Positions 3,705-33,903 of a stretch of DNA of 64,000 nucleotides are shown piece after piece. This stretch comes from a virus, in the IMG/VR virus record IMGVR_UViG_3300025423_000009, positions 32,001-96,000 of that record. One strand, given 5' to 3'. Numbering within the stretch: the first letter of the stretch is position 1; each line of letters opens with the position of its first letter. The notes below the pieces were generated by a model. It was given only the letters and a program-made list of their open reading frames with translations. It did no database searches and had not been told where the DNA came from. The translations under genes were made by a program, and so were the position numbers.

Positions 3705-4918
3705 TCAACGTTGCCAGCCTTTAACCACGTCTGGACTGAAGTTAGCTTTGGAGAACTCCAGTCGATCGACCAGCTTGACGGTTCCGGCCTTGGTTCCGAC
3801 CACGTAGCCTTCCTGTCCGGTTCGTTCGTATCCATCCTTGGTCTTCAGAAACGTCGAGATTCCTCCAAGACGATTTAGCTGAGCAATCAATTCCTTCTTG
3901 GCTCCCACCAGTTGAGCCTGAAGCTTGAATGCCTTGACGATGTTTGACAGATTCTCTCTGGAGAAGAAGTCGAACGTGATCTGACGTCGTGCATTGACGG
4001 CCTGCTTACCCTTCTCGGTCTTCTTCGAAGCCACTTCCCGATCGAAGCGAGCGTTCATCCAGGCCACGAGCTCCGTGGCATGCTTCTGTGGATCATCGAT
4101 CTCTCGGCCCGCACGAACCTTCGAATTAGCAAAGGTCTCGATGGTCTGAGCCAGATCAGGATTGGATTGCAAGGCTTTTAGAATCGAGGACGGAATGGAC
4201 TTGAGAGTGGCCTCGGCTTCCTTGAGAGTCGCATCGACTTTACCGAGGTCTGCGGTGGATGATACCTTCTCCGTGCCGATACCCTTGAGATCCGCCGTGC
4301 GCCACCAGATCGAAGGAATTCGCTTAAACGATTTGGTGTCTACTCCCGGAGAAGCATGGAGTGCACTCAGCTTACCGGTATATGACGTATGAAACACCAC
4401 GCCGATCTTGGCGGCCATGATAGCCTTGGCTTCCGATGAATCGAGTGGAACCGCGTAAACGATCGTGTTTGGATGAAAGGTGACGTAGTCTCGACCTTGA
4501 ATCTTCTGACGCTTCAGAGTGTCGGACGTGAAGAGCAAATCTCCTTGAATGATTCCTCGAATGCCAAGCTTGGAGAACTCGATCAGAGCGACCTTCATCT
4601 TGTTATTGAGATCTCCGGCCTCGATGTGATCGTCGATGTCCTGTGGAGTCTTATACACCTCTGGAACTTTATTGAAGATCGACTTCTTGGCCACGAAGAA
4701 CTTACCATCGGCTGGATCGGTACCACAGAAAATTGCCGGCGCGCCATCCCACTTGACCGTGACGGAAGCCGTGGCTCCTTTTCCGGTCAGAGAGTCACGA
4801 ACCGCACGAAGAGCCTGAATGGCCGACTTGGCGCCCTCGATACCACCATAGAGGACCTGATCCTCCACATGAGTTAGATGTCCAGAACCTTCGAGAATGA
4901 ATTGCTTGAAAGTCATCA
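3705..4918 (-). CDS. ATP-dependent ligase/capping-fold nucleotidyltransferase (DUF6267-like)
   Basis: Motif I KWDG, III QGDLLF, IV EGYVV, V KLVD. Start approximate (MMTFKQFILE). Confidence 0.7.
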
Positions 4919-15266: not shown

Positions 15267-16466
15267 TTAAGAAAAGAATGTTTCCAGAGAAGAAGCGTTC
15301 TCGATGCGATCGTGATGATTATCCTGAATCACAAAGTCGGAATTGACGAAGTCAAGTTTACCCTCCAGATACTTTCGAACCATGCGAGCCGGATGACGAG
15401 CCGTAGTAACCGGAACGTTCTGACAGACATGATTAAGATTGCGCAGAGGATTCAGAAGCTGAAAGTCCAGAGGCATCTTCATGATGGAGAGGACTTCGCG
15501 GACATTGAGGAATCGATCCTCGCAATGATGAGTCAGATGCGTGGGCATGTGACCGACAAAGGCACCGATGACTCCACATGGAACCTCGATCTGCTTGCGC
15601 ATGATGTTGCCTCCCATGCCAAGCTTCAGATGCATGGTTTTGCATCTTTCGGCGTGCTTGGAGAAGCCATTACGAGCCATCCATTCGGAGACTTTCATGT
15701 AGTCGTGTCCGGATGATTCGATCGTTCGAAGGACATTGATCGTTCGTGTTAGCGACTCAGTATACTGACGATGTGACATGCCGCCGAGAATTTCCTCGAG
15801 CAGGTAACGGTAATAAGGATCTTGAGAAGGTACTTTTTCATTGGCTAAAATCTGAAACATCGGATCGTTTTTGGCGCAGCGTTTGGCCAGATCAATCGTC
15901 TCCTCGATACGTTCGGATTTAGCATTCTTGTCCGTGTACTCGAGGAGAGGAACACGATCCTTCTCCTTCCAGAAGAAGTAGAACGTGCGTTCGCGAACCT
16001 GAGAGAGTCCATGAAGGCGAGAGGCCGTACGAAAGATGGAGAACGTGTATCCGTTCTTGTGCCCAATCTTGCGAAGGCGATCAACGACCGGCTGACCAAG
16101 CTTGGACGACAATCGCGGCGCATTCTCACCCCACATAACACGAGGACGAACGTTCTCGAGCACGTACTCCGCCGAGCGGTACATCCACTCATTCATCTTG
16201 GAATTTGAAGCCGCGGATTGTGATAGAGAAGAGAGTCCGCTACATGGACAGACCGTGTTGACCACATCAACCGAGTGTGAATGCTTCTGACCCTGATCGA
16301 GTAGAAAGTATGGCACCTCGTTATTGTAGTAGTTGAGTAGATGAGCGTCATTGTCCTTGAATGGAGAGAACGAGAGGATGTAGTCCGGTCGAGTATTGTC
16401 GAACTCGAGTTGCTGAGCGATGGTCTCTCCGCCGATTAGAGGAACTATGGATGCGTGTTTAATCAT
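15267..16466 (-). CDS. C5-cytosine methyltransferase-fold protein with degenerate SAM-binding motif I
   Basis: Motif IV CPCSG, VI GENAP, VIII QVRERTF and X QNVP; motif I reads VPLIGG rather than FxGxG. Confidence 0.75.
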   Translation of the reverse strand: MIKHASIVPLIGGETIAQQLEFDNTRPDYILSFSPFKDNDAHLLNYYNNEVPYFLLDQGQKHSHSVDVVNTVCPCSGLSSLSQSAASNSKMNEWMYRSAEYVLENVRPRVMWGENAPRLSSKLGQPVVDRLRKIGHKNGYTFSIFRTASRLHGLSQVRERTFYFFWKEKDRVPLLEYTDKNAKSERIEETIDLAKRCAKNDPMFQILANEKVPSQDPYYRYLLEEILGGMSHRQYTESLTRTINVLRTIESSGHDYMKVSEWMARNGFSKHAERCKTMHLKLGMGGNIMRKQIEVPCGVIGAFVGHMPTHLTHHCEDRFLNVREVLSIMKMPLDFQLLNPLRNLNHVCQNVPVTTARHPARMVRKYLEGKLDFVNSDFVIQDNHHDRIENASSLETFFS

Positions 16467-17581
16467 GCAAAGAATTCTTCGAGGATAGTCGTGTGATTGT
16501 TCATATCTGATTTATTCATCTTCTTCAGAGACTTTTTCTTGTCCGGCACTGGAAATTCAGACGTACCATTCCAGTGAGGATAGAACTCTCGAGAGAGGTG
16601 AATCGAATGAGGTTTCTCCATGTATTTGAAATCGAGCTCTCCCTTGGAGTTTAGAAGGTAATCGGTCCAACGAATGAAGCGAATCCCTCTACCTTTACAA
16701 AGATTTTCAAGATCTCGATTAAATACTCTGCGAATATCATCTCTTTGTTGCCAAGAACCCCAGAAAGGTTTGCCTTTATAGTAACCAGTCTTAGGAAGCT
16801 TACGTGACTCATTTTCAATTGGAAGGAGTTCATAGACTGATTTGTTTTTAATAGATAATGCATCTACGGCTTGCACATATCTTTTGGCCAATGAAGTAGC
16901 ATTTTCAAAGGCATCACCCTCGATGCGGCACAGATGATGGCGCACGTCGATGTTGCCAAAGTAACACTCTATAGATGATACCCTATCAAGGCTCGTGAAT
17001 TCATCGATGAACGTATTCAGGCCAGTGTTCAGAGCGCCGTTCAGAGTCTTGAACGGCACGGAGTTCACGGTCCATCCCGGTCGATGCATGCAGATGGCAT
17101 GAGAGTCTCCAATGACGATCTTGTCCGTGACGTGTGGAAAGCGAACTCGAGTCGACTCGAGGCGCATGCGCTTGAGATTCGCCAGATCCGTCTCGAGCCA
17201 TTCGGGCTGAATCTCCTTGGAGTTCTTTCGAGCATTCTCGATGCGTTCGGCAATCATCTCATCGATGGCCGGAAAGTCAACGGCCAGAGAGTACACCTTC
17301 CCTCTGAACTTCGAGAAGTTACGAATGTTCCATGCATATGGAAAGGATTGAACTCCGCCAAAGAGGTTCAGTGTACCGGTCCAATCGGAACCCCAATACA
17401 CATACACAACATCATACTCATTATGATCTTCATGGGCATTACCGGCCCAATTGACGTCAACGCGATCATACTTGCCGGTCTGACGAATCTGATCCGCGTA
17501 GATGACGCCTTGTGCGGATCGATGGGATGCCAGACGAGGAACTATCGGAATGAAGGGTGCGGTTACAAGAGCTTTCATCAT
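16463..17581 (-). CDS. Fusion of a T4 beta-glucosyltransferase N-domain-like region and an SGNH hydrolase/acyltransferase domain
   Basis: NEYDVVYV...LNLFGG...KFRGKVYSLAVD resembles recalled BGT NDYDRLIV...INFFGG...KYKSKIYYLFTD; C-half carries GDSH, GNID and SIHLS. Confidence 0.6.
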   Translation of the reverse strand: MMKALVTAPFIPIVPRLASHRSAQGVIYADQIRQTGKYDRVDVNWAGNAHEDHNEYDVVYVYWGSDWTGTLNLFGGVQSFPYAWNIRNFSKFRGKVYSLAVDFPAIDEMIAERIENARKNSKEIQPEWLETDLANLKRMRLESTRVRFPHVTDKIVIGDSHAICMHRPGWTVNSVPFKTLNGALNTGLNTFIDEFTSLDRVSSIECYFGNIDVRHHLCRIEGDAFENATSLAKRYVQAVDALSIKNKSVYELLPIENESRKLPKTGYYKGKPFWGSWQQRDDIRRVFNRDLENLCKGRGIRFIRWTDYLLNSKGELDFKYMEKPHSIHLSREFYPHWNGTSEFPVPDKKKSLKKMNKSDMNNHTTILEEFFA

Positions 17582-17587
17582 GTAAGT

Positions 17588-17615
17588 ATTATATCGCACT
17601 TCAGACTTCTGTAAA
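17588..17615 (-). promoter_or_regulatory. Sigma70-type promoter TTTACA-N16-TATAAT, leaderless geometry
   Basis: ATG at 17581 begins 6 nt after the -10 box. Confidence 0.7.
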
Positions 17616-18662
17616 TTCCAAAGTAGCGCGATCGTAATTTTTATCCCAGAGACGACGCGTCGTGTGCCCATTCAGCACGACCTTGCCTTCCGGATGCTTG
17701 GCCAGATCGAAATCCATCGGAAAGATCCAATCATAAGGAATACGCTTCGTTGGATGTTTTACGCCATGATGGATAAAAATAGACTTTGCAAAAAAACATG
17801 ACTTATCCTCTACGTTCAGCATCTTCTGCGAAGTCATAGGATTGTCTGGATGCTCACAGAGGTAACTCATCTGAGAAAGCCACACGTTGGCCTGATGATT
17901 CTTTGGAACGAACTCGCCGTCCGCATCGATCTCATACTTCACCTTGCCGTTGACGTTCTCGAGGAAGATCTGATGCATGCCGTCGAAGTGTCCGGTGCCG
18001 CCGAAAAGGACAGACTCCGGATCGACGAGATGAGGATAGGCCATTGCGACGTATCGAGCCGTGTTCTTACACGGATAGAGCGGAGAACGAAAGTTTTGTT
18101 CCTTCTTGAAGTGAGCCTCGAGGATCTTGGCAAACTGCATCATCGTGTACCTCTTGCCGTTTGTAAGGTGATGATGCAGAGCATTCGCCGCTTTCAGCGG
18201 TCCAGTCAGGAGCCACTCCTTCACGTCCGTACCCTTGGGATAGTAGATCTGAAAGAGGTCCGAACGGGCATGGCGATTATGCTTGAAGTGTTCGCGAGTC
18301 TTATCGATGCCGTGGGTCATCAGATGAGTTAGAGTACCCCAATGCTCATTGGTAAACGAGAAGACGAGGGCGTACCAAAGACGATCACGAGAGTCTTTTA
18401 CTCCTGTCATGAGCTCCACGAAAGGATGTTCATGCCAATGAAGACGATGGGAGAAGATCTGATAGTCTTCTCGAAGGAGACGATCTTCTCGCTTATCAAA
18501 CTCTCGGCAGAATTCAAAGAACTTCTCGAGCCTCTCGTCTTGAGTCCACTCACGCATCCAAGAATCCGTAGGCTTACCGTCTTTCAATAGTACCTGCGTC
18601 GTATTTGGATACTCGATGTTGCGATAGGGAATGGATCCCTCGATGAAAGGCTCGAGACTCAT
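17601..18662 (-). CDS. aGPT-Pplase / 5-hmU-kinase-helical (HhH-like) DNA base-modification protein, paralogue A
   Basis: C-terminal GGTGHFDGMHQI...NVEDKSCFFAK matches the GPGA.RGL...DIEN.LCE.K pattern as recalled; located in the gp42 cluster. Confidence 0.55.
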   Translation of the reverse strand: MSLEPFIEGSIPYRNIEYPNTTQVLLKDGKPTDSWMREWTQDERLEKFFEFCREFDKREDRLLREDYQIFSHRLHWHEHPFVELMTGVKDSRDRLWYALVFSFTNEHWGTLTHLMTHGIDKTREHFKHNRHARSDLFQIYYPKGTDVKEWLLTGPLKAANALHHHLTNGKRYTMMQFAKILEAHFKKEQNFRSPLYPCKNTARYVAMAYPHLVDPESVLFGGTGHFDGMHQIFLENVNGKVKYEIDADGEFVPKNHQANVWLSQMSYLCEHPDNPMTSQKMLNVEDKSCFFAKSIFIHHGVKHPTKRIPYDWIFPMDFDLAKHPEGKVVLNGHTTRRLWDKNYDRATLEFTEV

Positions 18663-19562: not shown

Positions 19563-20504
19563 TTATTCATTCCACATGCGACTGCGGTCCAGATCACCGA
19601 AGTCTTTCCACTTGCGCTGAGAGTTGATGCGCTTCACGTCAACCTTCGAGAGGTTGCGATTGATGTGAGCGTCCGAGCCGACATTGATGAATATCGCACC
19701 TGGCTTTCCGTCTTTGACGAATCCCTCCCATGCCTTGGCATCGTATGCGGCCGTGGACGGGAACGGCATAGTCTTGGCACACTTATGAGGAGTCAAAAAT
19801 GGCATCGTGGCCGAAACCACCTTGGCATCGCCGATCTCTCCCTTATGAATGTTTCGAGCCACGGCGACTCCATATGCTTGAGCCGTCGGCCATCCGATCT
19901 GCAATGCACGGACCATCGTGCCAGTAGAAACCGCACACCAGATTTCCGTGGGCTCATCGCCGATGATTTTTGTAATCGTATTGGCCATGTTGGCCAAGCC
20001 AGCCGTGACCATGGGGTTTCCGGTCAGACCAAATGGAAGGTATTGAGCATTGTTGGCCTCGGCCCACTTACGTGCATATGAGTTGAGAACCGGCATCGCG
20101 GCGATCTTGAAGAATCGAAGGTCTACATGTGAATACGCGGCCAGAGATCCTTGATGATTGGAAACTTCCGAGGATGCCGGACAGAAGAAGACGCACTTCT
20201 TACCATACATCTCCGCGAGCATCGCAATAGCATCCGGAGCATGACCCTGGCGAGGGGCGCAGTACACGAGCGTATCCTTATTCGTCTCGGCGATCACTCG
20301 CTCTCCGCCAAAGGCTTTTAGTCCACCTGGTGCCAGATCCGCGCGCAAAATGTACTTATCTCTAAAGCGTTCAACGATCGGCTCGGCGATCTTGGACTTA
20401 AACGTCCCCCAGATCTCCGCATAGTATTGTTTGGCCTCAGATCGAGACATGCCCATCGGAATATCCTTGTTGCTTCCATCCGTAACTATCGTATATGGTT
20501 TCAT
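19563..20504 (-). CDS. PLP-dependent enzyme, fold type II (PALP)
   Basis: RADLAPGGLKAFG (PLP lysine), WCAVSTGTM phosphate loop, IFINVG. Confidence 0.8.
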   Translation of the reverse strand: MKPYTIVTDGSNKDIPMGMSRSEAKQYYAEIWGTFKSKIAEPIVERFRDKYILRADLAPGGLKAFGGERVIAETNKDTLVYCAPRQGHAPDAIAMLAEMYGKKCVFFCPASSEVSNHQGSLAAYSHVDLRFFKIAAMPVLNSYARKWAEANNAQYLPFGLTGNPMVTAGLANMANTITKIIGDEPTEIWCAVSTGTMVRALQIGWPTAQAYGVAVARNIHKGEIGDAKVVSATMPFLTPHKCAKTMPFPSTAAYDAKAWEGFVKDGKPGAIFINVGSDAHINRNLSKVDVKRINSQRKWKDFGDLDRSRMWNE

Positions 20505-20511
20505 GGTAAAA

Positions 20512-21720
20512 TTATTTAGTGGGGAACTTATCAGGCACTCCGATCCAGTCCTTGAAGTCAGAATGGGATTGAACAAGCTTGATGTAGGCCTGTGGAGTCA
20601 GATTGTTCGCCTTCAGCACCTCGTCGTAATAGAAGTTCTGTGTTGAATCGTTGAACGTCTTCACGAGGCCGAGCTTAAGCATAGGAAGCTGACGACCGTA
20701 CGGATGAATGATCTTCGTGGAACTGAATACTCGATCTCGATCGATCGTATTGTAGGCTTCTCCCAGGCGAACATACGATGTCACCCAACGAATGTAGTCA
20801 CAGCAAACATCTTCGCAATCGTAAGGCACACTGCCGGTATCTTTGCATGCCATCTCCATGACCGAGTCTAGAAAGTCTTCGGTCTTCATCTTCTTGAGGG
20901 GACGAGCCAGGTACGAGATACATTCGATCGCATTGGAACCATAGAAGAACATCGAGTCGCGAACGACGTATTGAGGATACCAGTCGGCGATGTCGGCCAC
21001 GATCGCCGCGTACTGAAAGTGATACTGTCTCAGGCCATTTCGCACGTTCCAGTCAAGCATGAAGCTTCCGATCTCTCGAAGAGTCTTCTTCTGACCCTTC
21101 ACGAGCCAATCGGCCAGATCTCGTGCCAGTCGTGGAGCATACTCACAAAGGAAGTAGTCTCCTCCACGTTTGTACTTCGATGAAGGCTTGGGAAACGCCG
21201 GAAACTGATAACCCACGGATGTGTAGAATGAGTTCGACTCATGACGGACCATCTCGCACATATCCTCGATCGTCTTGGCTCGATGAAGCTTGAAGAGGAG
21301 AGTGTTATGGTACCCCGAAGGTTTCTGAGCATAGTTGATGCCAGAACCACACACTCGATGAAGGATGAAGATGTAGAGCCATTCGGCCAGAGAGAAGTCA
21401 TCATGCTTTCCAATCCAGTCATGAGCCACTTGACTCCTCTGCTCGGTGATCATTCCGGCTTGCATCTTCTTCCAGTACGGATGACGATCGGTCCATCCAT
21501 AGAAGACGTCATTGACGATCTGAGAGAATCCGGCATACTTACGCTCGACGACGTCGTACAGTTCGACGTGTTCCATGAGATCATCACCCATCTTCGATTC
21601 TCGATGAGTCATCATTCCATATGGAGGCAGAGAGGAGACATTGCACTTGGTCTGTTGCTCTCGAGCCAGATCGTAATACCGCAGAAAGTCCTGATAGTAT
21701 GGAGTCGCTTCAATTTTCAT
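20512..21720 (-). CDS. aGPT-Pplase / 5-hmU-kinase-helical (HhH-like) DNA base-modification protein, paralogue B
   Basis: LYDVVER, FILHRVCGS, YGSNAIECISYL and DCEDVCCDYIRW. Confidence 0.6.
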   Translation of the reverse strand: MKIEATPYYQDFLRYYDLAREQQTKCNVSSLPPYGMMTHRESKMGDDLMEHVELYDVVERKYAGFSQIVNDVFYGWTDRHPYWKKMQAGMITEQRSQVAHDWIGKHDDFSLAEWLYIFILHRVCGSGINYAQKPSGYHNTLLFKLHRAKTIEDMCEMVRHESNSFYTSVGYQFPAFPKPSSKYKRGGDYFLCEYAPRLARDLADWLVKGQKKTLREIGSFMLDWNVRNGLRQYHFQYAAIVADIADWYPQYVVRDSMFFYGSNAIECISYLARPLKKMKTEDFLDSVMEMACKDTGSVPYDCEDVCCDYIRWVTSYVRLGEAYNTIDRDRVFSSTKIIHPYGRQLPMLKLGLVKTFNDSTQNFYYDEVLKANNLTPQAYIKLVQSHSDFKDWIGVPDKFPTK

Positions 21721-22168
21721 AATATTGAATCCAATCGTATTCAATTCCGGCTTCCGCAAAGAGTTCTTTAGTAAAGTCACATGACTTAATCCATTGCTCG
21801 GCCACGATCTGTCGTGGAACGACCACGCGTTTAATACCAACCTGAATGATTCCCTTGGCACATTCAGAGCAAATTGGTAAGCCAGTGGCATAGAGAGTTG
21901 CTCCTTTCAGAGAAACACCATGTTCGACCGCGTTGTAGATCGCATTCATCTCGCCATGAACAATATACTTGTATTTGACTTCACGAACATTTAGACGATC
22001 TGGATTATCCTCAATTCCACTAGGAAAGCCATTGTAGCCAGTAGACAAAATCTTTCGATCTCGAACAACAACCGCTCCAATACGAGTCGATGGATCTTTG
22101 GACCATGATGCGACTTGTCGAGCCATGTCCAAAAATCTTATGTCCCATTTGTCGACTTCAGTTTGCAT
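21710..22168 (-). CDS. cd: dCMP deaminase
   Basis: SKDPSTRIGA, TGYNG, HGEMNA, PICSECAK. Confidence 0.92.
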   Translation of the reverse strand: MQTEVDKWDIRFLDMARQVASWSKDPSTRIGAVVVRDRKILSTGYNGFPSGIEDNPDRLNVREVKYKYIVHGEMNAIYNAVEHGVSLKGATLYATGLPICSECAKGIIQVGIKRVVVPRQIVAEQWIKSCDFTKELFAEAGIEYDWIQYYEN

Positions 22169-22904
22169 AGGGGCGTACTTTAGGATAGAACTTACGATAT
22201 TCTTCCTTACTTATCGAGTGCTGTCCAGTCAGATCGAAATGATCGATCAGATAGAACTGACTCGAATAGACATGTAAATTTCCAACGTTCCAGACGATGT
22301 GACCCAGATCGACGTTGGATTCCGTCAAACGATTGTAGTCATTCAGAAGCTTCTTCAATACATGAAGCTGCCAGGCGTAGTCGTTACGATATCCAGCCCA
22401 GGCATCGTTGCTTCGCATCGAGACGATGGCATGCATGGAATTCTCACGAATGAAGTACTGAACCGTGTTCGTGCAGATGAAATCCGACATGCCGTCCTTA
22501 CAGAAGTCTTCATGCATGGAAGGACGCGTGTAGATCATGATCGCACGACGTGAATTCTTATTGCAGATGAGTTCTCTCAGGCATCCGTCATATTGACTAC
22601 CATTCTCCTTCGACCAGATGCACCATCCATAGTTCGAGTTGATCAATCCATTGGGCGTCGCGATCTTCTTCCAGATCTCTGGAACCTTGGCGGGAATGTC
22701 ATTCACGTTTAGTGACTTTGACTCATACCATTGAAGCTCACGCTTCACGTAGTCGTCATTCACGGAGCCAAAGATCGTCGGCTCATCGGCCATGAATTGA
22801 ACTCCGATGATCTCGACGGTCAGAGCTCCGGTCTTGTCGATCGTGAAGTTCTCGTTCCTCAAAAGATCCGAGAACTCTTTGCGAATGTCATTGATGTTCC
22901 GCAT
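22158..22904 (-). CDS. 42: dCMP hydroxymethylase (T4 gp42 orthologue)
   Basis: DKTG..T.EIIG, RELQWY, INSNYGW, SRRAIMIYTRPSM, DFICTN, MRSND and RNDYAW; carries the Asp at the T4 D179 position that specifies dCMP. Confidence 0.92.
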   Translation of the reverse strand: MRNINDIRKEFSDLLRNENFTIDKTGALTVEIIGVQFMADEPTIFGSVNDDYVKRELQWYESKSLNVNDIPAKVPEIWKKIATPNGLINSNYGWCIWSKENGSQYDGCLRELICNKNSRRAIMIYTRPSMHEDFCKDGMSDFICTNTVQYFIRENSMHAIVSMRSNDAWAGYRNDYAWQLHVLKKLLNDYNRLTESNVDLGHIVWNVGNLHVYSSQFYLIDHFDLTGQHSISKEEYRKFYPKVRPYAN

Positions 22905-24957: not shown

Positions 24958-25028
24958 TGGAGCGTCGCGGGCGGTTTCCCTGATCGATCAGAGAGGACGT
25001 CCTGTCCAATCGACTTGACCCGCAACGC
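24958..25028 (-). ncRNA. 71-nt tRNA-like RNA with Gly-type acceptor and encoded CCA
   Basis: GCGTTGCGGG/CCCGCGACGC 10-bp stem, then T and CCA; three short internal hairpins; no canonical D, anticodon or T loops. Confidence 0.65.
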
Positions 25029-25404: not shown

Positions 25405-26397
25405 TTACGACAGAATTCGATCGACTCGAATCATCACTTGCTTGACGGCCATCCACATGTCGAGGTAAGTATAGGTTGCCAATCGTCCCAGGAAGATTGT
25501 CTTCCTCTCCGCATCAGCCAGCTTCTTGTATTCCATATAGACCTTCAGGCCTTCTCCGAATGGGATTGGATAGAACGGAACGTCTTCATTTCCGCAAGTC
25601 TGAGGATACTCCTCGGTGATGACAGTCAATCCTTCATGATTTGCAGTGAAGTAACCGTGATCGTACTTTCGAGTGTAGTCGTTCGTTCTATTGTTCTCGT
25701 TCTGAATGCAAAACGGCATGCGCTCACTCGTTACTTTATGAACGAATCTGAGAGAACGATAAGGAAGGACACCGAATCGAAAGTTGAAGTACTCGTCGAC
25801 CTTTCCAGTGTAGACGATCAGGTCTGTCGAGTGCTTCTTCCATTCGTCTGAGGCGCATCCGAGCTCTACAGGAATGCCTTCGAGCATGGCTTCGAACATT
25901 TTCGTGTATCCGTTTCGGGGAATGCACTGATACTTCTGGCCTTCGAACCAGGTGGGATCGTCACAATCCTTGGTCTTCGGGATGCGATTCGTGATGCTTG
26001 CTGGGATTTGATCGAACGGAACTCCCCATTGCTTTTCGGAGTACTCGCGAAACATATACTCAATGATCTCTTCCTGAGACAGCTCGCGACCAATCTCGGC
26101 GACGGTCTTTCGAGAATATGGAAGCGATACTAGCCCAAGGCGAGTGTTTCCCTTCGGCTGAAGCTTAAATGGAGTCCACTCTGTGAAACGGGATAGGAAT
26201 TCAAACACTCGCTCATCGTCCGTGTGAAAGACGTGAGGGCCATAGTTGTGAACCGTCACTCCACATACATTGGAATCATAGCAGTTACCGCCGATGTGCT
26301 TGCGCGAGTCGAAAATGCGGCACTCATGTCCAGCATCGGTCAGGAGTCGTGCGGCCGTGATACCAGAGAGGCCGCATCCGACGACGTTAACTTTCAT
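25405..26397 (-). CDS. glf: UDP-galactopyranose mutase
   Basis: GCGLSG FAD motif, HIGGNCYD, YGPHVFH, YQCIP..GY, PYRSL, PFYPI, LGRLATYTYLDM. Confidence 0.92.
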   Translation of the reverse strand: MKVNVVGCGLSGITAARLLTDAGHECRIFDSRKHIGGNCYDSNVCGVTVHNYGPHVFHTDDERVFEFLSRFTEWTPFKLQPKGNTRLGLVSLPYSRKTVAEIGRELSQEEIIEYMFREYSEKQWGVPFDQIPASITNRIPKTKDCDDPTWFEGQKYQCIPRNGYTKMFEAMLEGIPVELGCASDEWKKHSTDLIVYTGKVDEYFNFRFGVLPYRSLRFVHKVTSERMPFCIQNENNRTNDYTRKYDHGYFTANHEGLTVITEEYPQTCGNEDVPFYPIPFGEGLKVYMEYKKLADAERKTIFLGRLATYTYLDMWMAVKQVMIRVDRILS

Positions 26398-27047
26398 AGC
26401 TTTTCAAATTCAGGCAGACGTATGGTCTTCGACAGGATGTCGAGGAGATGGTTTCGTTTCTCAAATGTAGCCCGCCAATCTTTGAAGTTCTGCTGAGGAG
26501 AAAATTGCTTTTTCACTTGCACGAACGTCATTCCCCATGATTCCGGATAATGTTTCGACTCGACAAATTCAGTCTTTTGATCCAGACTCGAGATGCCGAA
26601 GAACGCTTTGACCGCTTCTTCTGGCCTTTCCCAGACTATGCCTCCGTACATATCGTGCTTGTCTTTCGGCCATGCGGTGTCATGGAATACGACATAGCCA
26701 CCTTCCCTGATGTGAGGGAACCAGAAGAATAGCTCACAAAGAACCTGCTCTTTGATGTGGCACGTGTCAATGAAGAGCAGGTCGATGGATCCTTTGTTCC
26801 AGTGTTTGCCGATCGTAACTGAGTCTCCGAGTATGAATGCATATCGTTCATGATTCGTCAGATAAGATGGAACCTGAGCAGAGTCAATGTCGACTCCGTG
26901 CACTCTATTATTTCGAGCAGAAGCATCGCGAATCATCATCATCGACGACTCTCCGCTTCTAACGCCTAGATCCACAAACATTCTGTCGGATCCAAGCGAA
27001 TCGACGGTTTGTGCTAGAATCTCTTGATTTGGTCCTAGATCGTTCAT
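26394..27047 (-). CDS. Class I SAM-dependent methyltransferase (Methyltransf_24-like)
   Basis: VDLGVRSGES, GVDID, GDS, LLFIDTCH, GGYVVFHD. Confidence 0.85.
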   Translation of the reverse strand: MNDLGPNQEILAQTVDSLGSDRMFVDLGVRSGESSMMMIRDASARNNRVHGVDIDSAQVPSYLTNHERYAFILGDSVTIGKHWNKGSIDLLFIDTCHIKEQVLCELFFWFPHIREGGYVVFHDTAWPKDKHDMYGGIVWERPEEAVKAFFGISSLDQKTEFVESKHYPESWGMTFVQVKKQFSPQQNFKDWRATFEKRNHLLDILSKTIRLPEFEKL

Positions 27048-27928
27048 AATAAGTATTCCTTGATTTGCATGTCCAAGTCAGAACATTGATGTTTAAGAAT
27101 GTTTTTACTATTAGCAAATTCGTCTATAATCGTCTCATATGAAGTCAGACATCGTCGAATCACTTCACCTATCATTCGGTGATCGCCGAGTTTATACATG
27201 TCTGGAACCGTTACGTCTTCACTAAAAGCCGCTGAACCTTTACGATTTGTGATAACACAGTTACCGAAAAGCAAAGCTTCACGAGGGATTCGATCCTTTC
27301 CAGGATGATTCCCAAAGTCTATATAAATCTTGCTCTTGCACAGGAGATCGATGACCTGTTCTCGATTCAGTCCTGAGATCGGTCTGAAGTCGATGTTCGG
27401 ATTCTCCGTCATGATCTGCATCGTCACTTCGTACCCCTTGGCCGGATTATAGCATACGAAGTCTTGCTTCTCTGATAGAGGAATGTCTTGAATCGTATTG
27501 GCACCAAAGATGTAATCGTTCAGCATGTGAACATTCTTAGCTCCATTGCGAGTGACGTAGTCGTAAGCGTACCGCGACTGACAGAAGTGAGTAATTGAGG
27601 TGTCGTGAAAGTCCTGAAACTTAGAATGATTGTTGTCAACGCTTAGCCACCAGATAGCCCGTGATATCGATTTGAATGAAGGAAGCATCGCGGTCCACAC
27701 TTCAGGAACGATTAGTAGACTTTCAGCTTCGTCTGGAACAGAGAATCCATACTCTGAAAACTTGTAGTGAGCATAGATGTTTAGGACCGGATTCGAGCAA
27801 TGACGATCAAAGATCGGTATAGCTTTACCTCCAAGTCGATTGATGCCGTCGATCAACTGATACAATGATTCGATCCCTCCGGCCTGATACTGAGCCGGAG
27901 TCATCACATAAATTGCTTTGAATCTCAT
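27044..27928 (-). CDS. GT-B fold glycosyltransferase
   Basis: GGIESLYQL, YNPAKG, KIYIDFG.HPGKDRIPREA. Confidence 0.7.
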   Translation of the reverse strand: MRFKAIYVMTPAQYQAGGIESLYQLIDGINRLGGKAIPIFDRHCSNPVLNIYAHYKFSEYGFSVPDEAESLLIVPEVWTAMLPSFKSISRAIWWLSVDNNHSKFQDFHDTSITHFCQSRYAYDYVTRNGAKNVHMLNDYIFGANTIQDIPLSEKQDFVCYNPAKGYEVTMQIMTENPNIDFRPISGLNREQVIDLLCKSKIYIDFGNHPGKDRIPREALLFGNCVITNRKGSAAFSEDVTVPDMYKLGDHRMIGEVIRRCLTSYETIIDEFANSKNILKHQCSDLDMQIKEYLL

Positions 27929-28626
27929 GTGCGCACGTACTTTCTTCTTACATATTCAAGTTCAGATTGCTTCTTCGCATCGCTAACCAAAGACGAGCTT
28001 ATCTGATTCGAATGCTCGCGATTTGCCACCGTGATCTGATTGCAGATCGCTGGAAGCCCATGCTTATCATACAGCTGCTTATAGTAGTCGACATCCATCA
28101 GCCATATCAAATTCTCATCGAATCGCAGGACGTTTTCATTCTTGAACATAATGACACTCGGCGAGCTGATAGTATTTGTGCCATATTGAATCTCATCATG
28201 ATAGAATGGAAAGTTCGGTCGTTCCAGCCTGACACCGTCCGGAGACTGGCATGAAGCCGTTGCCAACCAGTAGTTTTGACTTCCCGCGAAATAGAACATC
28301 ATTGCTTCAAGACTTCGATCGGAAGTTAGGAAGTCATCTTGAAAGAGTGGCTTTATCACCTTTCCACATGCGTGATGAATCGCATTGTTGGTATTGTGAG
28401 AAGAGTTACCTCGATTCATCGCTTTAACATATCGAATGAGTAAACGATCATTCCATCGTTCGCATAGTCGATTGATCCCATCGTCGATGCTCTGATCGGA
28501 CACGATCACTTCGAAAGACTTGAATGTCTGACGAGTTAGTATTGAAAATGAATGTTCAAGGTAAGCGACGCCTTGACCGGCCATTTCATAAGTTGGAATG
28601 CATATCGATACGATCGGATCGTTCAT
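27925..28626 (-). CDS. GT2 family glycosyltransferase
   Basis: SICIPTY, EVIVSDQS, NTNNAI, LFQDD. Confidence 0.88.
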   Translation of the reverse strand: MNDPIVSICIPTYEMAGQGVAYLEHSFSILTRQTFKSFEVIVSDQSIDDGINRLCERWNDRLLIRYVKAMNRGNSSHNTNNAIHHACGKVIKPLFQDDFLTSDRSLEAMMFYFAGSQNYWLATASCQSPDGVRLERPNFPFYHDEIQYGTNTISSPSVIMFKNENVLRFDENLIWLMDVDYYKQLYDKHGLPAICNQITVANREHSNQISSSLVSDAKKQSELEYVRRKYVRT

Positions 28627-29519
28627 AGCTTGGGTAGATTTAGATTCTCAAGTATTTCACTCAGACGATAGAAATAGTCACCCCAGTAGAGAGCCCTCCG
28701 GCAGTTATCTTCGATTGCCTGACTCCTCTTATGATAGTCTTCTTCCGTTAGACCATTGACGATTTGAATGAGTTCGTTCTCGTCATTGAACGTGATGTAC
28801 CCATCTGGATTGAAGAAGTCTGATAGATTTGGACATCCCCAGTATATGGGAACGGTCTTGGTCAGGAAGCTGTCAATCACTTTCTCCGTAAAGTAGTTCT
28901 TATTCCTCGAGTTTTCGACCGCGATATGGAACATGCTTTTCCAGCATACTACTTTGTCTTGAGGTTCGCATTGAAAGATCCAGCTGTTTGGAGTTGTCAC
29001 TGAAGATCGAGAGTTGAAGATGCTGTGTCTAAGCCGATGACCCTCGATGGCATTCTTGACACCGCAAAGAAATGAAGTTTCAAACTTCTTTTCTTTGATG
29101 CTGATATTCTGATATGTCCGCTTGTTGTCCCAGATGAAAGACGTACCAAAGGGAAACATCATGGAGTTTGGACACTTTGACAGTATTGAATCTCCCCAAG
29201 TCAAAATCAAATTAAAAGCTCGATGATTTGTGATCGCCCAGTCGTGTAGACCAAACAATTGATTCGGTTCCTGTATGACGAGTATGTTACATGCGCTAAG
29301 TTTCAGCTGATCTGTATTCGGAATAAAGTCGGTGAATACGGTAACGTTCCTATCGGAGAAGTCGACTTTTTTGCTCGGAAGAATGAAGTCTTCTCCAGTC
29401 AGAAGAGTCTTCTCATAAAGAGAAGGTGGTATGAAGGTCGAGAAGAATTTCATATAATGATCCAGTTTTTCTGATACAGGTCGCTGATATTTGCCTCCGC
29501 CAGGTGCTGACGAAACCAC
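28623..29519 (-). CDS. GT10-like (fucosyltransferase-like) glycosyltransferase
   Basis: FHIAVENS...YFTEKVIDSF..KTVPIYWG. Confidence 0.75.
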   Translation of the reverse strand: MVSSAPGGGKYQRPVSEKLDHYMKFFSTFIPPSLYEKTLLTGEDFILPSKKVDFSDRNVTVFTDFIPNTDQLKLSACNILVIQEPNQLFGLHDWAITNHRAFNLILTWGDSILSKCPNSMMFPFGTSFIWDNKRTYQNISIKEKKFETSFLCGVKNAIEGHRLRHSIFNSRSSVTTPNSWIFQCEPQDKVVCWKSMFHIAVENSRNKNYFTEKVIDSFLTKTVPIYWGCPNLSDFFNPDGYITFNDENELIQIVNGLTEEDYHKRSQAIEDNCRRALYWGDYFYRLSEILENLNLPKL

Positions 29520-30265
29520 ACAGACGGAGCTATAACTTTCTTATTTGGATTAGAGTTTAGCCAACTTCCCCACCATGAGAACGTTGAGTTTGCGATGATA
29601 TTGTGCTGGCACAGGGACATCAGGCATAGCTCGACGAACTGATTGTTAGCCGTGCAAAGACGGACCGAATCGCTCGGACGAATCTTTTGCCCCAGGAATG
29701 CCGGATCGTCCGTGATGTAGATGAAGTCATATGGCTTATCCAAAAAGTTCTCTTCAATGGCCCTACGGTAATATGTTTCATCGCATAAGCCATGCCATGT
29801 ATTTTGCACATAGTCACCTCGCCGAACATGAATCGATACCGTCTCATGATCAGGACGAAGATATTTCTTGGCTTCTTCGATGATCTCGGGTTTGAAAGTG
29901 AATTCACGTCGTACCCGATCTTCAATGTGTTCAAAGTATCGATGAGTTTGAAAGTATCCACGTAGACATACATTATCACCTGTATGAAAGAATTTCTCTT
30001 GAAAATGAAATTCATTTGGACTATTCTCAATGGCAAACTTATACTCGCCAGGAACACAATCCTTACACGACAGATTAAATGCCTTATCAACCGTCATGGC
30101 GTGAAAGGTATTATCAATCGGAAATTCTTTCCACGTAAGAGAATTTCCATATCGTCGATCGATTCCCCAATCGAGATTCTGTTTAGTCGCGATGCCCATC
30201 AGAGCCGCATATTGAAACATTTGATTGCCCAACCTCCCATTAGGTCCTATGAGTGCCGTAATCAT
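29450..30265 (-). CDS. GT11 alpha-1,2-fucosyltransferase-like protein
   Basis: GRLGNQMFQYA, GYFQT..YF, SIHVRRGDY, IIANSTFSWW. Confidence 0.9.
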   Translation of the reverse strand: MITALIGPNGRLGNQMFQYAALMGIATKQNLDWGIDRRYGNSLTWKEFPIDNTFHAMTVDKAFNLSCKDCVPGEYKFAIENSPNEFHFQEKFFHTGDNVCLRGYFQTHRYFEHIEDRVRREFTFKPEIIEEAKKYLRPDHETVSIHVRRGDYVQNTWHGLCDETYYRRAIEENFLDKPYDFIYITDDPAFLGQKIRPSDSVRLCTANNQFVELCLMSLCQHNIIANSTFSWWGSWLNSNPNKKVIAPSVWFRQHLAEANISDLYQKNWIII

Positions 30266-30269
30266 AATA

Positions 30270-30965
30270 TCATTTATAGTATTTTTCCGCACGAGGTAGT
30301 CCATCTGCTCCATTGACGAAGACGATGGCCTCAGGTGGAGGAACTTTGCCGTGACCGGTATAATGAACGGCAAACTTAGTCGTATAGTTTACCGTAGGCT
30401 TGAAAGATCTCGCCACATGTTGCTTAGGCAAATGATGCCAGAAGATACGATCTCCGATAATACCGAGTTTCTTCTCCTTAAATGTCCAGAATCCGATGAG
30501 ATTGAAAGCCGATCGAGCGATCAGATAGCAATTCGTATCACAAAAGTTAACGCCGTCGGATTCGAGGCACGTGGCAATGACTTCACCTTGCAGATCTCGC
30601 AAAGTCCTTCCAGTCGTAACGATCGGAGTCTGATCCGTAACTTTAGATATAGCCTCGGCTACGTGATCGGATTCATACCAACAGTCCGCATCGAGGAAGC
30701 ACACGGCGTCGAATCCTTGATTACAGGCAATGGCCGCACCAATCGCTCGTGGAGTGTCACCATAGTCTCCGCAGTTTGGAATCGAAAAATGACGATTCTT
30801 GCCGAATTTCACGCTCGGTAAATCATCGATCCAGGCTTGAGGATGACCATCCGCAACAATGAAGTGAGACACATATGGGTGAGTCTGACTCGTCACGGAA
30901 CGCATGCATCTGACCAGAGTATCGGGATCTTCCTTATAGTAGGGAGTAATGACGGCGACATTCAT
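30270..30965 (-). CDS. GT2 family glycosyltransferase
   Basis: AVITPYY, IVADG, GDTPR..G, CFLDADCW. Confidence 0.85.
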   Translation of the reverse strand: MNVAVITPYYKEDPDTLVRCMRSVTSQTHPYVSHFIVADGHPQAWIDDLPSVKFGKNRHFSIPNCGDYGDTPRAIGAAIACNQGFDAVCFLDADCWYESDHVAEAISKVTDQTPIVTTGRTLRDLQGEVIATCLESDGVNFCDTNCYLIARSAFNLIGFWTFKEKKLGIIGDRIFWHHLPKQHVARSFKPTVNYTTKFAVHYTGHGKVPPPEAIVFVNGADGLPRAEKYYK

Positions 30966-30969
30966 AAAA

Positions 30970-31920
30970 TTATCTAGACGCTCCACGAAGTGCAAAGGAA
31001 ATGGCTCGCGCGGCCTCGGTCTCCATGCCTCGATTCTTATACCACGATCCGGTATCTCGATCGAGCTCACGACATAGATCGGCGATCTCTCTTGCCGTGA
31101 TTGGATATCCGCGACGAATCGCCGTGGCGGCAATCGAGGACATGACCTGATACATCTTCAAGTACCAGCCGGTCGACGAGATCGATCGATACTGATTGAT
31201 GAGCTCGCGCTTTACGAACGGACAGTTACGGTATGATGTCCACGAATACTTATGACCATTGGTCAATTGACTTCTCTGATGCTTCTCGATGGCCTTCTGC
31301 ACGTGTTCTGGCAGATTGTCGAGGATTCCAGTGGAATGCTTCTCGACATATGGCCATCGGCTCATGAGTTCATATGGATTCAAAGCCGGACCCTTATTCG
31401 AGAAGATGAAGTTGTACGCGTTTGGATACTGAGCCGGAACATAGTACATGCGACTGAGATCCTTGGTCTGCGGATCGGCCAGGGACTTAAACTCCTTGTT
31501 CAGCGCATACCAGAAGTGCCTGATCTTATCGGCCGAAATCGCACAAGTTAACTCGAGGACGACTCGAAACTTCGGATGCTCCTTCTTCGAAGAGGCCGAC
31601 GAGTAGATCACGGAGCGATAGAGCGAAAACGCTTTCACGGCATCGTCATAGCCACCGACTGGATACTCATCGACGTCGATGGCCGCCCATTTGGCCCAGC
31701 AGTCGACGTTGGCGTTAGATCTAGTGGTACCTGGCTTGAAGATCGCCGGAGTGATCAGAGGAGACGCATCCTTGCAGAATCTTTCTTCCTTCTTGGGCTT
31801 GTATCCGGGGACTCTGGACAGCTCATATAAAAGCGACTCAAGCTCGTCAAAGGAATCGAATTCCATTCGACGATGAGTCTTGTTATCGAAGATCGACTTG
31901 AATATAGTCAAAGCTATCAT
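30970..31920 (-). CDS. Archaeo-eukaryotic primase (prim-pol) superfamily protein
   Basis: AAIDVD, YSSASS...PKFRVV, D.SRMYYVP and a helical C-terminal domain. Confidence 0.65.
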   Translation of the reverse strand: MIALTIFKSIFDNKTHRRMEFDSFDELESLLYELSRVPGYKPKKEERFCKDASPLITPAIFKPGTTRSNANVDCWAKWAAIDVDEYPVGGYDDAVKAFSLYRSVIYSSASSKKEHPKFRVVLELTCAISADKIRHFWYALNKEFKSLADPQTKDLSRMYYVPAQYPNAYNFIFSNKGPALNPYELMSRWPYVEKHSTGILDNLPEHVQKAIEKHQRSQLTNGHKYSWTSYRNCPFVKRELINQYRSISSTGWYLKMYQVMSSIAATAIRRGYPITAREIADLCRELDRDTGSWYKNRGMETEAARAISFALRGASR

Positions 31921-32829: not shown

Positions 32830-33903
32830 TTAAAAGAAGCTTTCAAGGCTACCGACATCTTCGGACGTCCAGTCGATCGACTTTAGAATCAGATCGAGAG
32901 GTTCCAAGAACGTCTTCTCGAATTGAGTGTCATAGTCGACAGAATTATGTAGGCCGAGTTCCTTCGGCAGATCTCCTGCGGCCGGAAAGGCGATCACGTT
33001 CTCCTGAATCTCATTTGGAATCTTCAGATACACGAAGCGAATCTTGTCGCCAGACTGAATGCCTCGATAGGTGGATGTCAGGCCCTTGGCCTCGATCCAG
33101 TGATTGTACAGAAGTGCTCCACGAACGTGAATCGGTGTTCCCTTCTGATAGATGGTTCCATTACTCTGCCAACCATCAACATCTGAAGTTCCTCGAGGAA
33201 AGGCGACTTCTCGAGGACTCATGGAAGAAAACTGCTTGCGAAATTCCGCGATGGCTTCCTGAGTAGCCGCCTTATTGCCAGTCATAATGATCTTGAACAT
33301 GCGCTTCATGGCCGAACGACAGACGGCCGGAGTCGACGACTTGATCGCTTCAATCCCCATGATCTTTAGCTTAGGTTCCGTGTACCGCACTCCCTCATTG
33401 TCCAGAACGTTTAGAATGTAACGCTTCTTGGCCGTCCATACGGCACGATCCGCGATGGCCTCACGCTTCATGATCATGCGATTCACATAAGCATTGGTAG
33501 CCTTGGCGAACTTATTGAATGCGACCTCGAGTTCCAGACCAATACCCTTCTCATAGAACTCATCGAGAAACTTGATAGGATCTTTTGGCTTGAACTTGTC
33601 GATCACGTCCTTCAGAGTCACATACACGGAGTCGGTATCGACGGCCAACACTCGATCCTTCTCGATGCCAATCATCTTAGACACGTAACGATTCACGGTA
33701 GCTTCGGCCAAACGAATGGCCGTCTGACCGGACAGAGTCACGGCCTCGGCCACCTTAATGTTGAAGTAGCGGAAAAAACGATTTCCGAGTGCTCCGTACA
33801 AACTATTGAGAAGCACCTTCAGTGACTGTTGTTCGATTTCCAAGTTAGAAATCTGGGTATCGAGTTCTTTCAATTCCTTTTGCAATAATAAAAATTCACT
33901 CAT
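32830..33903 (-). CDS. 43B: DNA polymerase gp43, C-terminal half (43B)
   Basis: KVLLNSLYGALG, AVDTDS, KKRY, KIMGIEA.KSSTP. Confidence 0.95.
   Translation of the reverse strand: MSEFLLLQKELKELDTQISNLEIEQQSLKVLLNSLYGALGNRFFRYFNIKVAEAVTLSGQTAIRLAEATVNRYVSKMIGIEKDRVLAVDTDSVYVTLKDVIDKFKPKDPIKFLDEFYEKGIGLELEVAFNKFAKATNAYVNRMIMKREAIADRAVWTAKKRYILNVLDNEGVRYTEPKLKIMGIEAIKSSTPAVCRSAMKRMFKIIMTGNKAATQEAIAEFRKQFSSMSPREVAFPRGTSDVDGWQSNGTIYQKGTPIHVRGALLYNHWIEAKGLTSTYRGIQSGDKIRFVYLKIPNEIQENVIAFPAAGDLPKELGLHNSVDYDTQFEKTFLEPLDLILKSIDWTSEDVGSLESFF

Follow-up and report, generated by a model that had tools for sequence, protein, structure and literature searches.

A virus-only protein family joining a β-glucosyltransferase-type DNA domain to an SGNH domain: candidate O-acyltransferases for 5-hydroxymethylcytosine in T4-like phages

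To our knowledge, all known post-replicative hypermodifications of pyrimidines start with sugar transfer to, or phosphorylation of, a hydroxymethyl group. In the thymidine pathway, a P-loop kinase phosphorylates 5-hydroxymethyl-2'-deoxyuridine (5-hmdU); a cysteine of an amino acid:DNA transferase (AADT) then attacks C6, the phosphate is expelled via an exocyclic methylene, an amino acid is added, and an enzyme dependent on pyridoxal 5'-phosphate (PLP) finishes the product (PMC8989533). AADTs need an activated 5-CH2-O-X group and use this cysteine attack at C6 (PMC8989533, PMC11472151). Only two genes, those of the kinase and of the glycosylase-like AADT, are common to all such phages, and phage ViI carries two AADT paralogues and a PLP enzyme (PMC5889632). 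Another known reaction on DNA is that of Mom, a GNAT protein of phage Mu, which acylates adenine in DNA in a Gly-tRNA-dependent manner (PMC13219725). Here we describe a gene, which we label TGT, in a 64,000-nucleotide stretch of viral DNA (the window: bases 32001-96000 of the 117,947-bp IMG/VR virus record IMGVR_UViG_3300025423_000009, which has terminal repeats). Its product combines the acceptor domain of T4 β-glucosyltransferase (BGT) with an SGNH fold, and may be an O-acyltransferase acting on 5-hydroxymethylcytosine (hmC) in DNA.

The open reading frame (ORF) spans 16463-17671 on the minus strand without interruption. An in-frame ATG at 17671 would give a protein of 402 aa, a start that has no backing from homologues. 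Because homologues begin at the paired methionines of the MMKALV motif, at 17581, the frame of 372 aa is the likely TGT gene (Table 1); its start lies 19 nt past the stop of the upstream gene. An AlphaFold2 model of the protein, made with 37 homologues, shows two domains (pLDDT 86).

The first domain of TGT and the N-terminal domain of BGT are homologous. An hhalign comparison of a 60-member TGT alignment with a 27-member BGT alignment returned a probability of 97.7% (E 1.4e-12) and paired residues 1-115 with BGT residues 1-118. Compared with T4 BGT alone, the TGT family gave E 1.9e-5, and BLASTP gave E 0.002. We claim kinship with BGT on the strength of these sequence tests. The isolated domain was modelled with a pLDDT of 96, and T4 BGT was its best match both in Foldseek (1qkj, E 7.7e-3, rmsd 3.2 Å, 113 columns) and in VIA-align against 48,161 chains (1c3j_A, Z 7.3, a score that by itself is no proof; rmsd 2.7 Å, 110 residues, BGT 1-164). 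Asn70 of BGT contacts DNA at the flipped base, and its counterpart in TGT lies in the conserved LNLFGG loop. The S19-H20-R21 element at the start of helix 1 is a candidate phosphate- or substrate-binding loop.

The profile match to BGT stops at about residue 115, ahead of the BGT donor domain. The catalytic pair T99-D100, invariant in the BGT alignment, has no conserved equivalent in TGT: D102 is paired with BGT D100 by BLASTP, but close homologues show Pro, Glu or Gln at this position, and in the hhalign alignment the TD pair faces a gap. When the 60 TGT members were scanned one by one against Pfam, the two commonest families were T4-Gluco-transf (PF09198), touched by three members (best E 0.011), and Lipase_GDSL_2, found in five (best E 2e-4). 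Sequence searches of the PDB with the TGT protein and two family profiles found no BGT and no SGNH enzyme; their sole match was the OSK domain of Oskar (E 0.037).

The C-terminal domain, residues 151-338, adopts the five-stranded α/β/α SGNH fold in the model. VIA-align matched it with Z scores of 12-13.9 to dozens of SGNH esterases and acyltransferases over 150-170 aligned residues, all 50 best rows were SGNH-type, and Foldseek gave E values of ~1e-5 against SGNH structures. The nearest structures are platelet-activating factor acetylhydrolase (PAF-AH), sialate O-acetylesterase, acetyl-xylan esterases, OatA and PatB, which are acetyl-specific esterases or O-acetyltransferases. A complete GT-B fold for TGT is ruled out, as residues 151-338 match SGNH folds only. 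The motifs fall at the places of the SGNH blocks. In the 60-member alignment, Ser160, Gly182, Asn210 and His328 each reach at least 90% conservation, down to members with 18-20% identity, and the same holds for G158-D159-S160-H161 and G209-N210-I211-D212 over members to ~20% identity. At the place of block II, TLxG lies past strand 2, and G182 is conserved; E322 and S326 are conserved close to His328. In an hhalign comparison with E. coli TesA the GDS block alone was aligned (probability 0.9%, not significant), so that it is the fold and the order of the motifs on which residue-level equivalence to a solved SGNH triad depends. With this basis we regard Ser160 and His328 as a conserved, predicted catalytic-type pair.

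These results bear on an original prediction made from the letters of the window alone. It had likened the N-half to the acceptor domain of BGT, had denied that the C-half is a UDP-sugar domain and assigned it to SGNH, with a Ser-His pair, and had named structural comparison with BGT and SGNH proteins as one way to check this. The comparison led from the N-domain to BGT and from the C-domain to SGNH folds; the C-half assignment holds at the level of the fold, and the Ser-His pair is conserved. A complete GT-B fold would have counted against the prediction, but the C-half is no GT-B domain, and Asp100 of BGT is not conserved. The strings it quoted (NEYDVVYV, LNLFGG, KFRGKVYSLAVD, GDSH, GNID and SIHLS) are all present in the ORF.

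TGT belongs to a large family found in viruses only. It comprises ~1070 clusters at 90% identity, none of which carries a Pfam domain, and 533 representatives at 50% identity, and it occurs on 582 IMG/VR stretches. Among cultured phages we found it in 38 Aeromonas and 2 Stenotrophomonas T4-like records and in three Tenacibaculum phages, at 25-33% identity. A Pfam scan of the window protein gave no match at E 0.1, PHROGs places the protein in two families, both of unknown function, and a megablast search of the region against phage records gave no match. In a full-text search of the literature, neither the TGT family nor a comparable cytosine pathway was found described.

The host genome of this gene is that of an uncultured T4-like phage, with gp32, gp59, gp41, UvsX, RegA, clamp loader, B-family polymerase, gp46/47, ribonucleotide reductase, T4 baseplate proteins and a MazG-type pyrophosphatase. 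It also encodes a close orthologue of gp42, the deoxycytidine monophosphate (dCMP) hydroxymethylase. This protein retains both Asp residues, which by a published criterion (PMC13326640) points to hmC and not to the 5-hydroxycytosine of RB69-type phages, in support of the premise of hmC-containing DNA on which the prediction was built. By the same criterion (PMC13326640), we reject arabinosyl- or 5-hydroxycytosine-type chemistry in this phage, as its gp42 has Asp at the D169 position. Orthologues of gp42 are also present in Aeromonas phages 31, 25 and UP87, all of which carry the TGT family. In T4 the gene order is 41-40-uvsX-segA-b-gt-42; in the window it is gp41-uvsX-MT-like-TGT-variable block-cd-42, where MT-like denotes a methyltransferase-like gene. 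Placed between uvsX and gene 42, TGT occupies the slot of b-gt, a clear domain replacement within a classic T4 gene slot.

The variable block encodes a protein of 353 aa, a PLP enzyme and a protein of 459 aa. The protein-language-model clusters closest to the 353-aa protein are named 'amino acid:DNA transferase' (score 0.98) and carry PF18723/PF18724. A glutamate four residues ahead of a cysteine (E-x3-C) is conserved in all three types of partner discussed here, and the solved AADT PaMx11 gp46 has Glu243 and Cys247 at the same spacing (PMC11472151). Profile (HMM) and hhalign comparisons of the 353- and 459-aa proteins with the HMUDK_hel-type neighbors of other loci were not significant, a PF18723 search of the window's genome at E 1 gave no match, and an HMUDK_hel-type profile found no match in the PDB. 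We call both proteins AADT-like, a putative label that rests on language-model neighbors, cross-matches via fusion proteins and the E-x3-C motif. Taken as their longest ORFs, the genes for the 459-aa protein and the PLP enzyme extend 64-180 nt into the upstream genes, and homologues of both align from about residue 45-60 only, so that the true starts are probably internal.

Linkage of TGT to such genes was examined in 80 related IMG/VR loci, most of them truncated. An AADT/HMUDK_hel-like gene is present in the upstream flank of all 56 loci that have at least 3 kb upstream of TGT. In 48 of these it encodes a protein of ~355 aa that matches PF18723 (E 1e-9 to 1e-13) and lacks a Walker A motif; the remaining eight have the 353- and/or 459-aa types of the window. 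A grpA-type gene (68 loci) ends a median of 5 nt ahead of the TGT start. Gene 42 was found in 50 of the 80 loci. No conserved Walker-A/P-loop ORF lies between gp42 and uvsX in the 80 loci. None of the five Walker-A ORFs of the window's genome looks like a kinase, the Pfam tallies list no kinase family, and the TGT protein itself has no Walker A motif.

The family is also joined to AADT-like proteins in at least three kinds of natural fusion. The 981-aa protein P0146 combines an FkbM methyltransferase, an HMUDK_hel-type domain and TGT; ORF233c of Aeromonas phage 31 (795 aa) combines TGT with an HMUDK_hel-type domain (E 8e-62); and six representative clusters (560-790 aa) combine TGT with a domain of the 459-aa type (E 1e-23 to 5e-54), one of which also matches the 353-aa protein. 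Since the 80 loci are related, these fusions are more independent evidence than linkage. They would also suit a scheme in which TGT serves the AADT-like enzyme as a subunit that binds DNA or acts as a scaffold and has no catalytic role. The OSK domain of Oskar, a nucleic-acid-binding SGNH fold without enzymatic activity, provides a precedent and is matched by TGT weakly in sequence and with Z 11.1 in structure. OSK has lost its catalytic residues, whereas the Ser, Gly, Asn and His of TGT are at least 90% conserved among members down to 18-20% identity, and we regard a scaffold role as highly improbable.

Because the window holds the gene set of the thymidine pathway on a cytosine precursor, with TGT in the place of the kinase, acylation of the hmC hydroxyl group is the most economical reading of this locus. 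We consider it well possible, if short of probable, that TGT is an hmC-DNA O-acyltransferase, a post-replicative enzyme that installs an ester leaving group for partner enzymes. In such a mechanism, the BGT-derived N-domain would bind DNA and offer the hydroxymethyl group of a flipped hmC in the interdomain cleft. Ser160 of the SGNH domain, helped by His328, would be acylated by a donor in the cytoplasm, an ester or thioester. Acetyl-coenzyme A is the simplest guess for this donor; an aminoacyl ester is possible, and it might even be an aminoacyl-RNA. Transfer of the acyl group to 5-CH2OH would give 5-acyloxymethylcytosine, and in this phage the ester would then be the group that leaves in the reaction of the neighboring AADT-like enzymes (353 and 459 aa). 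Their conserved cysteine would attack C6, the carboxylate would be expelled via an exocyclic methylene intermediate, and these enzymes would then add a nucleophile supplied or finished by the PLP enzyme. TGT would thus do for hmC what the P-loop 5-hmdU DNA kinase does in thymidine hypermodification. An ester leaving group replacing kinase activation was already part of the original prediction. The context speaks for that part (AADT-like genes in all 56 loci, fusions, no P-loop kinase in the module), while acyl transfer, its donor and its product are what we infer.

Several observations weigh against an acyltransferase. The first concern the active site: the SGNH acid, the Asp of DxxH, is absent (position -3 is His, Gln or Arg), and block III is one residue out of register, reading GNID and not GxND. 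Moreover, hydrolases are commoner than transferases among SGNH enzymes; most characterized members are hydrolases, including the best structural matches to TGT, and catalytic-type residues suit either role. TGT might accordingly be an esterase acting on a DNA-bound intermediate, from which it strips a group attached by an ester bond, or a hydrolase that delivers the nucleophile by cleaving the ester or thioester of a carrier, with no acylation of hmC. We find this unlikely. A BGT-type domain presents, in BGT, a free hydroxymethyl group. TGT stays constant while the genes that would supply the moiety vary (MIPS-like, for myo-inositol-1-phosphate synthase, versus PLP/459-type), which fits a moiety-independent step such as activation, and since the module has no kinase, it offers no other means to activate hmC.

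A second set of points concerns the donor. No gene that makes an acyl donor is linked to the module, and the presence of UDP-galactopyranose mutase (Glf) near TGT, 8 kb away in the window and two genes upstream in Aeromonas phage 25, leaves room for sugar chemistry. TGT could then transfer a glycosyl or other phospho-activated group, with an NDP-sugar such as UDP-galactofuranose (UDP-Galf) or a phosphorylated donor bound in the cleft and the SGNH domain acting as a binding module. Descent from BGT and the many invariant Arg and His residues would agree with this. Against it stand the absence of the GT-B donor domain and of a conserved T99-D100 pair, the invariance of the Ser and His blocks, and the lack of sugar-nucleotide genes in most loci; phage 25 moreover has a candidate BGT-like transferase of its own beside Glf, if a weakly supported one. 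We judge sugar transfer by TGT to be very unlikely. The order in phage 25 (locus L003, 3779-7050) is Glf, PHG25p227nc (358 aa) and the TGT-family member. PHG25p227nc shows weak likeness to the BGT/TGT N-domain (E 1.6e-3) and to the BGT C-domain (E 7.7e-3), and is a candidate for a divergent, BGT-like glycosyltransferase with UDP-Galf as donor.

A third set of points concerns the partners. The 80 loci come from related phages, so that linkage partly reflects shared descent, and the complete genomes of phage 25-type Aeromonas phages and of Tenacibaculum phage PTm5 carry TGT without a detectable AADT-like gene. Priming for an AADT-like enzyme can therefore not be the only role of TGT; in them, the modification may end with the acyl group, or a different partner may be involved. 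Extended to the whole family, this would make TGT an acetyl or aminoacyl O-transferase whose ester on hmC is the finished modification, while AADT-like and MT-like neighbors serve other positions or steps. Mom, which transfers an acyl group from Gly-tRNA to DNA, offers a precedent (PMC13219725). Such a role as the general one is hard to reconcile with the AADT-like gene in all 56 related loci and with the repeated fusions. Benzylic-type esters on C5 are labile and would make a poor permanent mark, and we consider a final ester mark improbable. The sole thymidylate synthase (TS)-family homologue of PTm5 (locus L092, 1207-1884), a phage whose TGT member ORF-050 is full-length, reads RSNN...D by eye. 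The Asn at D169 and the Asp at N177 are the reported signature of 5-hydroxy-dCMP synthases (PMC13326640). If this reading is correct, the substrates of the TGT family may include bases besides hmC.

Table 1. TGT, its domains and motifs, and neighboring genes, with positions in the window
Feature	Position	Strand	Remarks
TGT gene (BGT-N/SGNH protein, 372 aa)	16463..17581	(-)	ORF and homologue starts
TGT N-domain, residues 1-147	17141..17581	(-)	homologous to N-terminal DNA/acceptor domain of T4 BGT
S19-H20-R21, helix 1 N-terminus	17519..17527	(-)	invariant in close members; Ser and His at least 90% family-wide
LNLFGG, residues 71-76	17354..17371	(-)	N72, G75, G76 correspond to BGT-invariant N70, G73, G74 (INFFGG)
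TGT C-domain, residues 151-338	16568..17131	(-)	SGNH hydrolase/acyltransferase fold
Block I, G158-D159-S160-H161	17099..17110	(-)	directly past strand 154-158; Ser160 predicted nucleophile
Block III-like, G209-N210-I211-D212, then R214-H215-H216	16946..16957	(-)	YFGNIDxRHH past strand 3
His328, block V (S-I-H-L-S-R)	16598..16600	(-)	near C-terminus; no Asp at -3
C-terminal tail ILEEFFA (LxxFF type)	16466..16486	(-)	past low-confidence linker
MT-like protein, C5-cytosine-methyltransferase fold	15267..16466	(-)	PF00145 E 5e-9; 4-nt overlap with TGT stop
Upstream partner, 353 aa, AADT/HMUDK_hel-like (putative)	17601..18662	(-)	language-model neighbors; E-x3-C motif
Fold-type II PLP enzyme	19563..20576	(-)	PALP E 1e-5; phrog_7093 E 3e-73
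459-aa protein, putative second AADT-like paralogue	20512..21891	(-)	family joined to the C-terminus of TGT in six representative clusters
dCMP deaminase (cd)	21710..22168	(-)	
gp42 orthologue, dCMP hydroxymethylase	22158..22904	(-)	E 5e-91 to T4 1b49; RSND...RND kept

The MT-like gene, which lies downstream of TGT, adjoins it in 71 of the 80 related loci and is missing from two loci, L031 and L034, that keep TGT. Among 54 distinct homologues of its product, the PC, (G)ENAP and QxRxR motifs are invariant; motif I reads PLIGG and not FxGxG, and the acid of motif II is absent. Several proteins of the phage end in tails of the (S/T)L(E/x)xFF type: TGT, the MT-like protein, the 353-aa protein (TLEF) and a 357-aa protein of the replication region (SLESFF), at 16466-16486, 15270-15290, 17604-17625 and 32830-32850 of the window (a further site is G000 4164-4877). 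Most AADT-like neighbors in other loci also end in FF-type tails, and the 834-aa polymerase ORF of the phage has no such tail. We take LxxFF-type tails to resemble the sliding-clamp-binding peptides of the T4 type.

Genes that could supply a moiety vary among the phages. In phage 31 (locus L002, 4408-5931) a sodium:solute symporter gene (E 7e-53) precedes the TGT-AADT fusion, and most marine loci have a MIPS-like gene (E 1e-7 to 1e-9; L014 7219-8517, L042 5546-6838, L078 7216-8508) ahead of the AADT-like gene. The symporter and MIPS-like genes hint at an inositol-type or imported nucleophile. Between its AADT-like gene and TGT, one marine locus carries genes for an FkbM methyltransferase and a PTOX-like alternative oxidase with E 1e-68 (L042, 8975-9550).

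Two further regions of the window were noted. A 71-nt element at 24958-25028 on the minus strand lies in a tRNA cluster, with tRNA-Asp, tRNA-Met and tRNA-Glu close by; it has an 11-bp terminal stem, a 3' UCCA and a folding energy of -36.7 kcal/mol (z -4.3 against shuffles), and is not called by ARAGORN. A glycan-building block at 25405-31133, also on the minus strand, encodes UDP-galactopyranose mutase, a CmcI-type methyltransferase and GT2-, GT10- and GT11-type transferases. A cytidylyltransferase-like gene elsewhere is grouped with glycan-building genes.

If TGT acts as an acyltransferase, a Ser-His acyl-enzyme route would be a third entry to hypermodification and TGT a new class of DNA-modifying enzyme. 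We hold it possible, with some reserve, that the family comprises the first DNA-nucleobase O-acyltransferase, forming 5-acyloxymethylcytosine in duplex DNA, with carboxylate-ester activation replacing phosphorylation as the entry step. Such an enzyme would account for the finishing of DNA in hundreds of hmC-encoding phages without glucosyltransferases, including the cultured Aeromonas phages 31, 44RR2.8t and 25. It would also imply undescribed cytosine hypermodifications (amino-acid, inositol-type or others) in abundant marine and Aeromonas T4-like phages. Unknown cytosine modifications bear on the evasion of restriction, CRISPR and type IV defence, and enzymes of this kind are possible reagents for the selective chemical derivatization of 5hmC.

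Among described enzymes, T4 BGT (b-gt; GT-B; PF09198; 1qkj, 1c3j, 1j39) shares with TGT the N-terminal domain, the N..GG loop and the slot between uvsX and gene 42 in an hmC-making phage. In contrast to BGT, TGT has an SGNH domain instead of the entire UDP-glucose-binding C-domain, lacks a conserved T99-D100 pair, falls below the Pfam threshold and implies no sugar donor. The SGNH/GDSL enzymes PAF-AH Ib alpha (1wab), sialate O-acetylesterase (6njc/7pzg), OatA (5ufy) and PatB (7tjb) have the fold of the TGT C-domain (Z 10.5-13.9), together with the GDS nucleophile block; their block II Gly, block III Asn and block V His have putative counterparts in TGT. Unlike these enzymes, TGT is cytoplasmic, is joined to a domain from a DNA enzyme, and has no MBOAT/AT3 partner; it lacks the acid residue, its block III is shifted, and its presumed acceptor is a DNA base.

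In its setting, TGT resembles the P-loop 5-hmdU DNA kinase. Each is the one constant partner of AADT- or glycosylase-like enzymes, lies beside a TS-family hydroxymethylase and is sometimes fused to an HMUDK_hel-type domain, and the thymidine pathway of phage ViI is mirrored by the set in the window, with two AADT-like paralogues, a PLP enzyme and TGT in the place of the kinase. This likeness is functional only, as TGT has no P-loop and no homology to the kinase; its base is cytosine and not uracil, and the leaving group would be a carboxylate and not a phosphate. Mom of phage Mu is a precedent for an enzyme that acylates a base of duplex DNA with an ester as donor. In contrast to TGT, it has an unrelated fold, acylates N6 of adenine, and needs neither a hydroxymethyl precursor nor a partner transferase.

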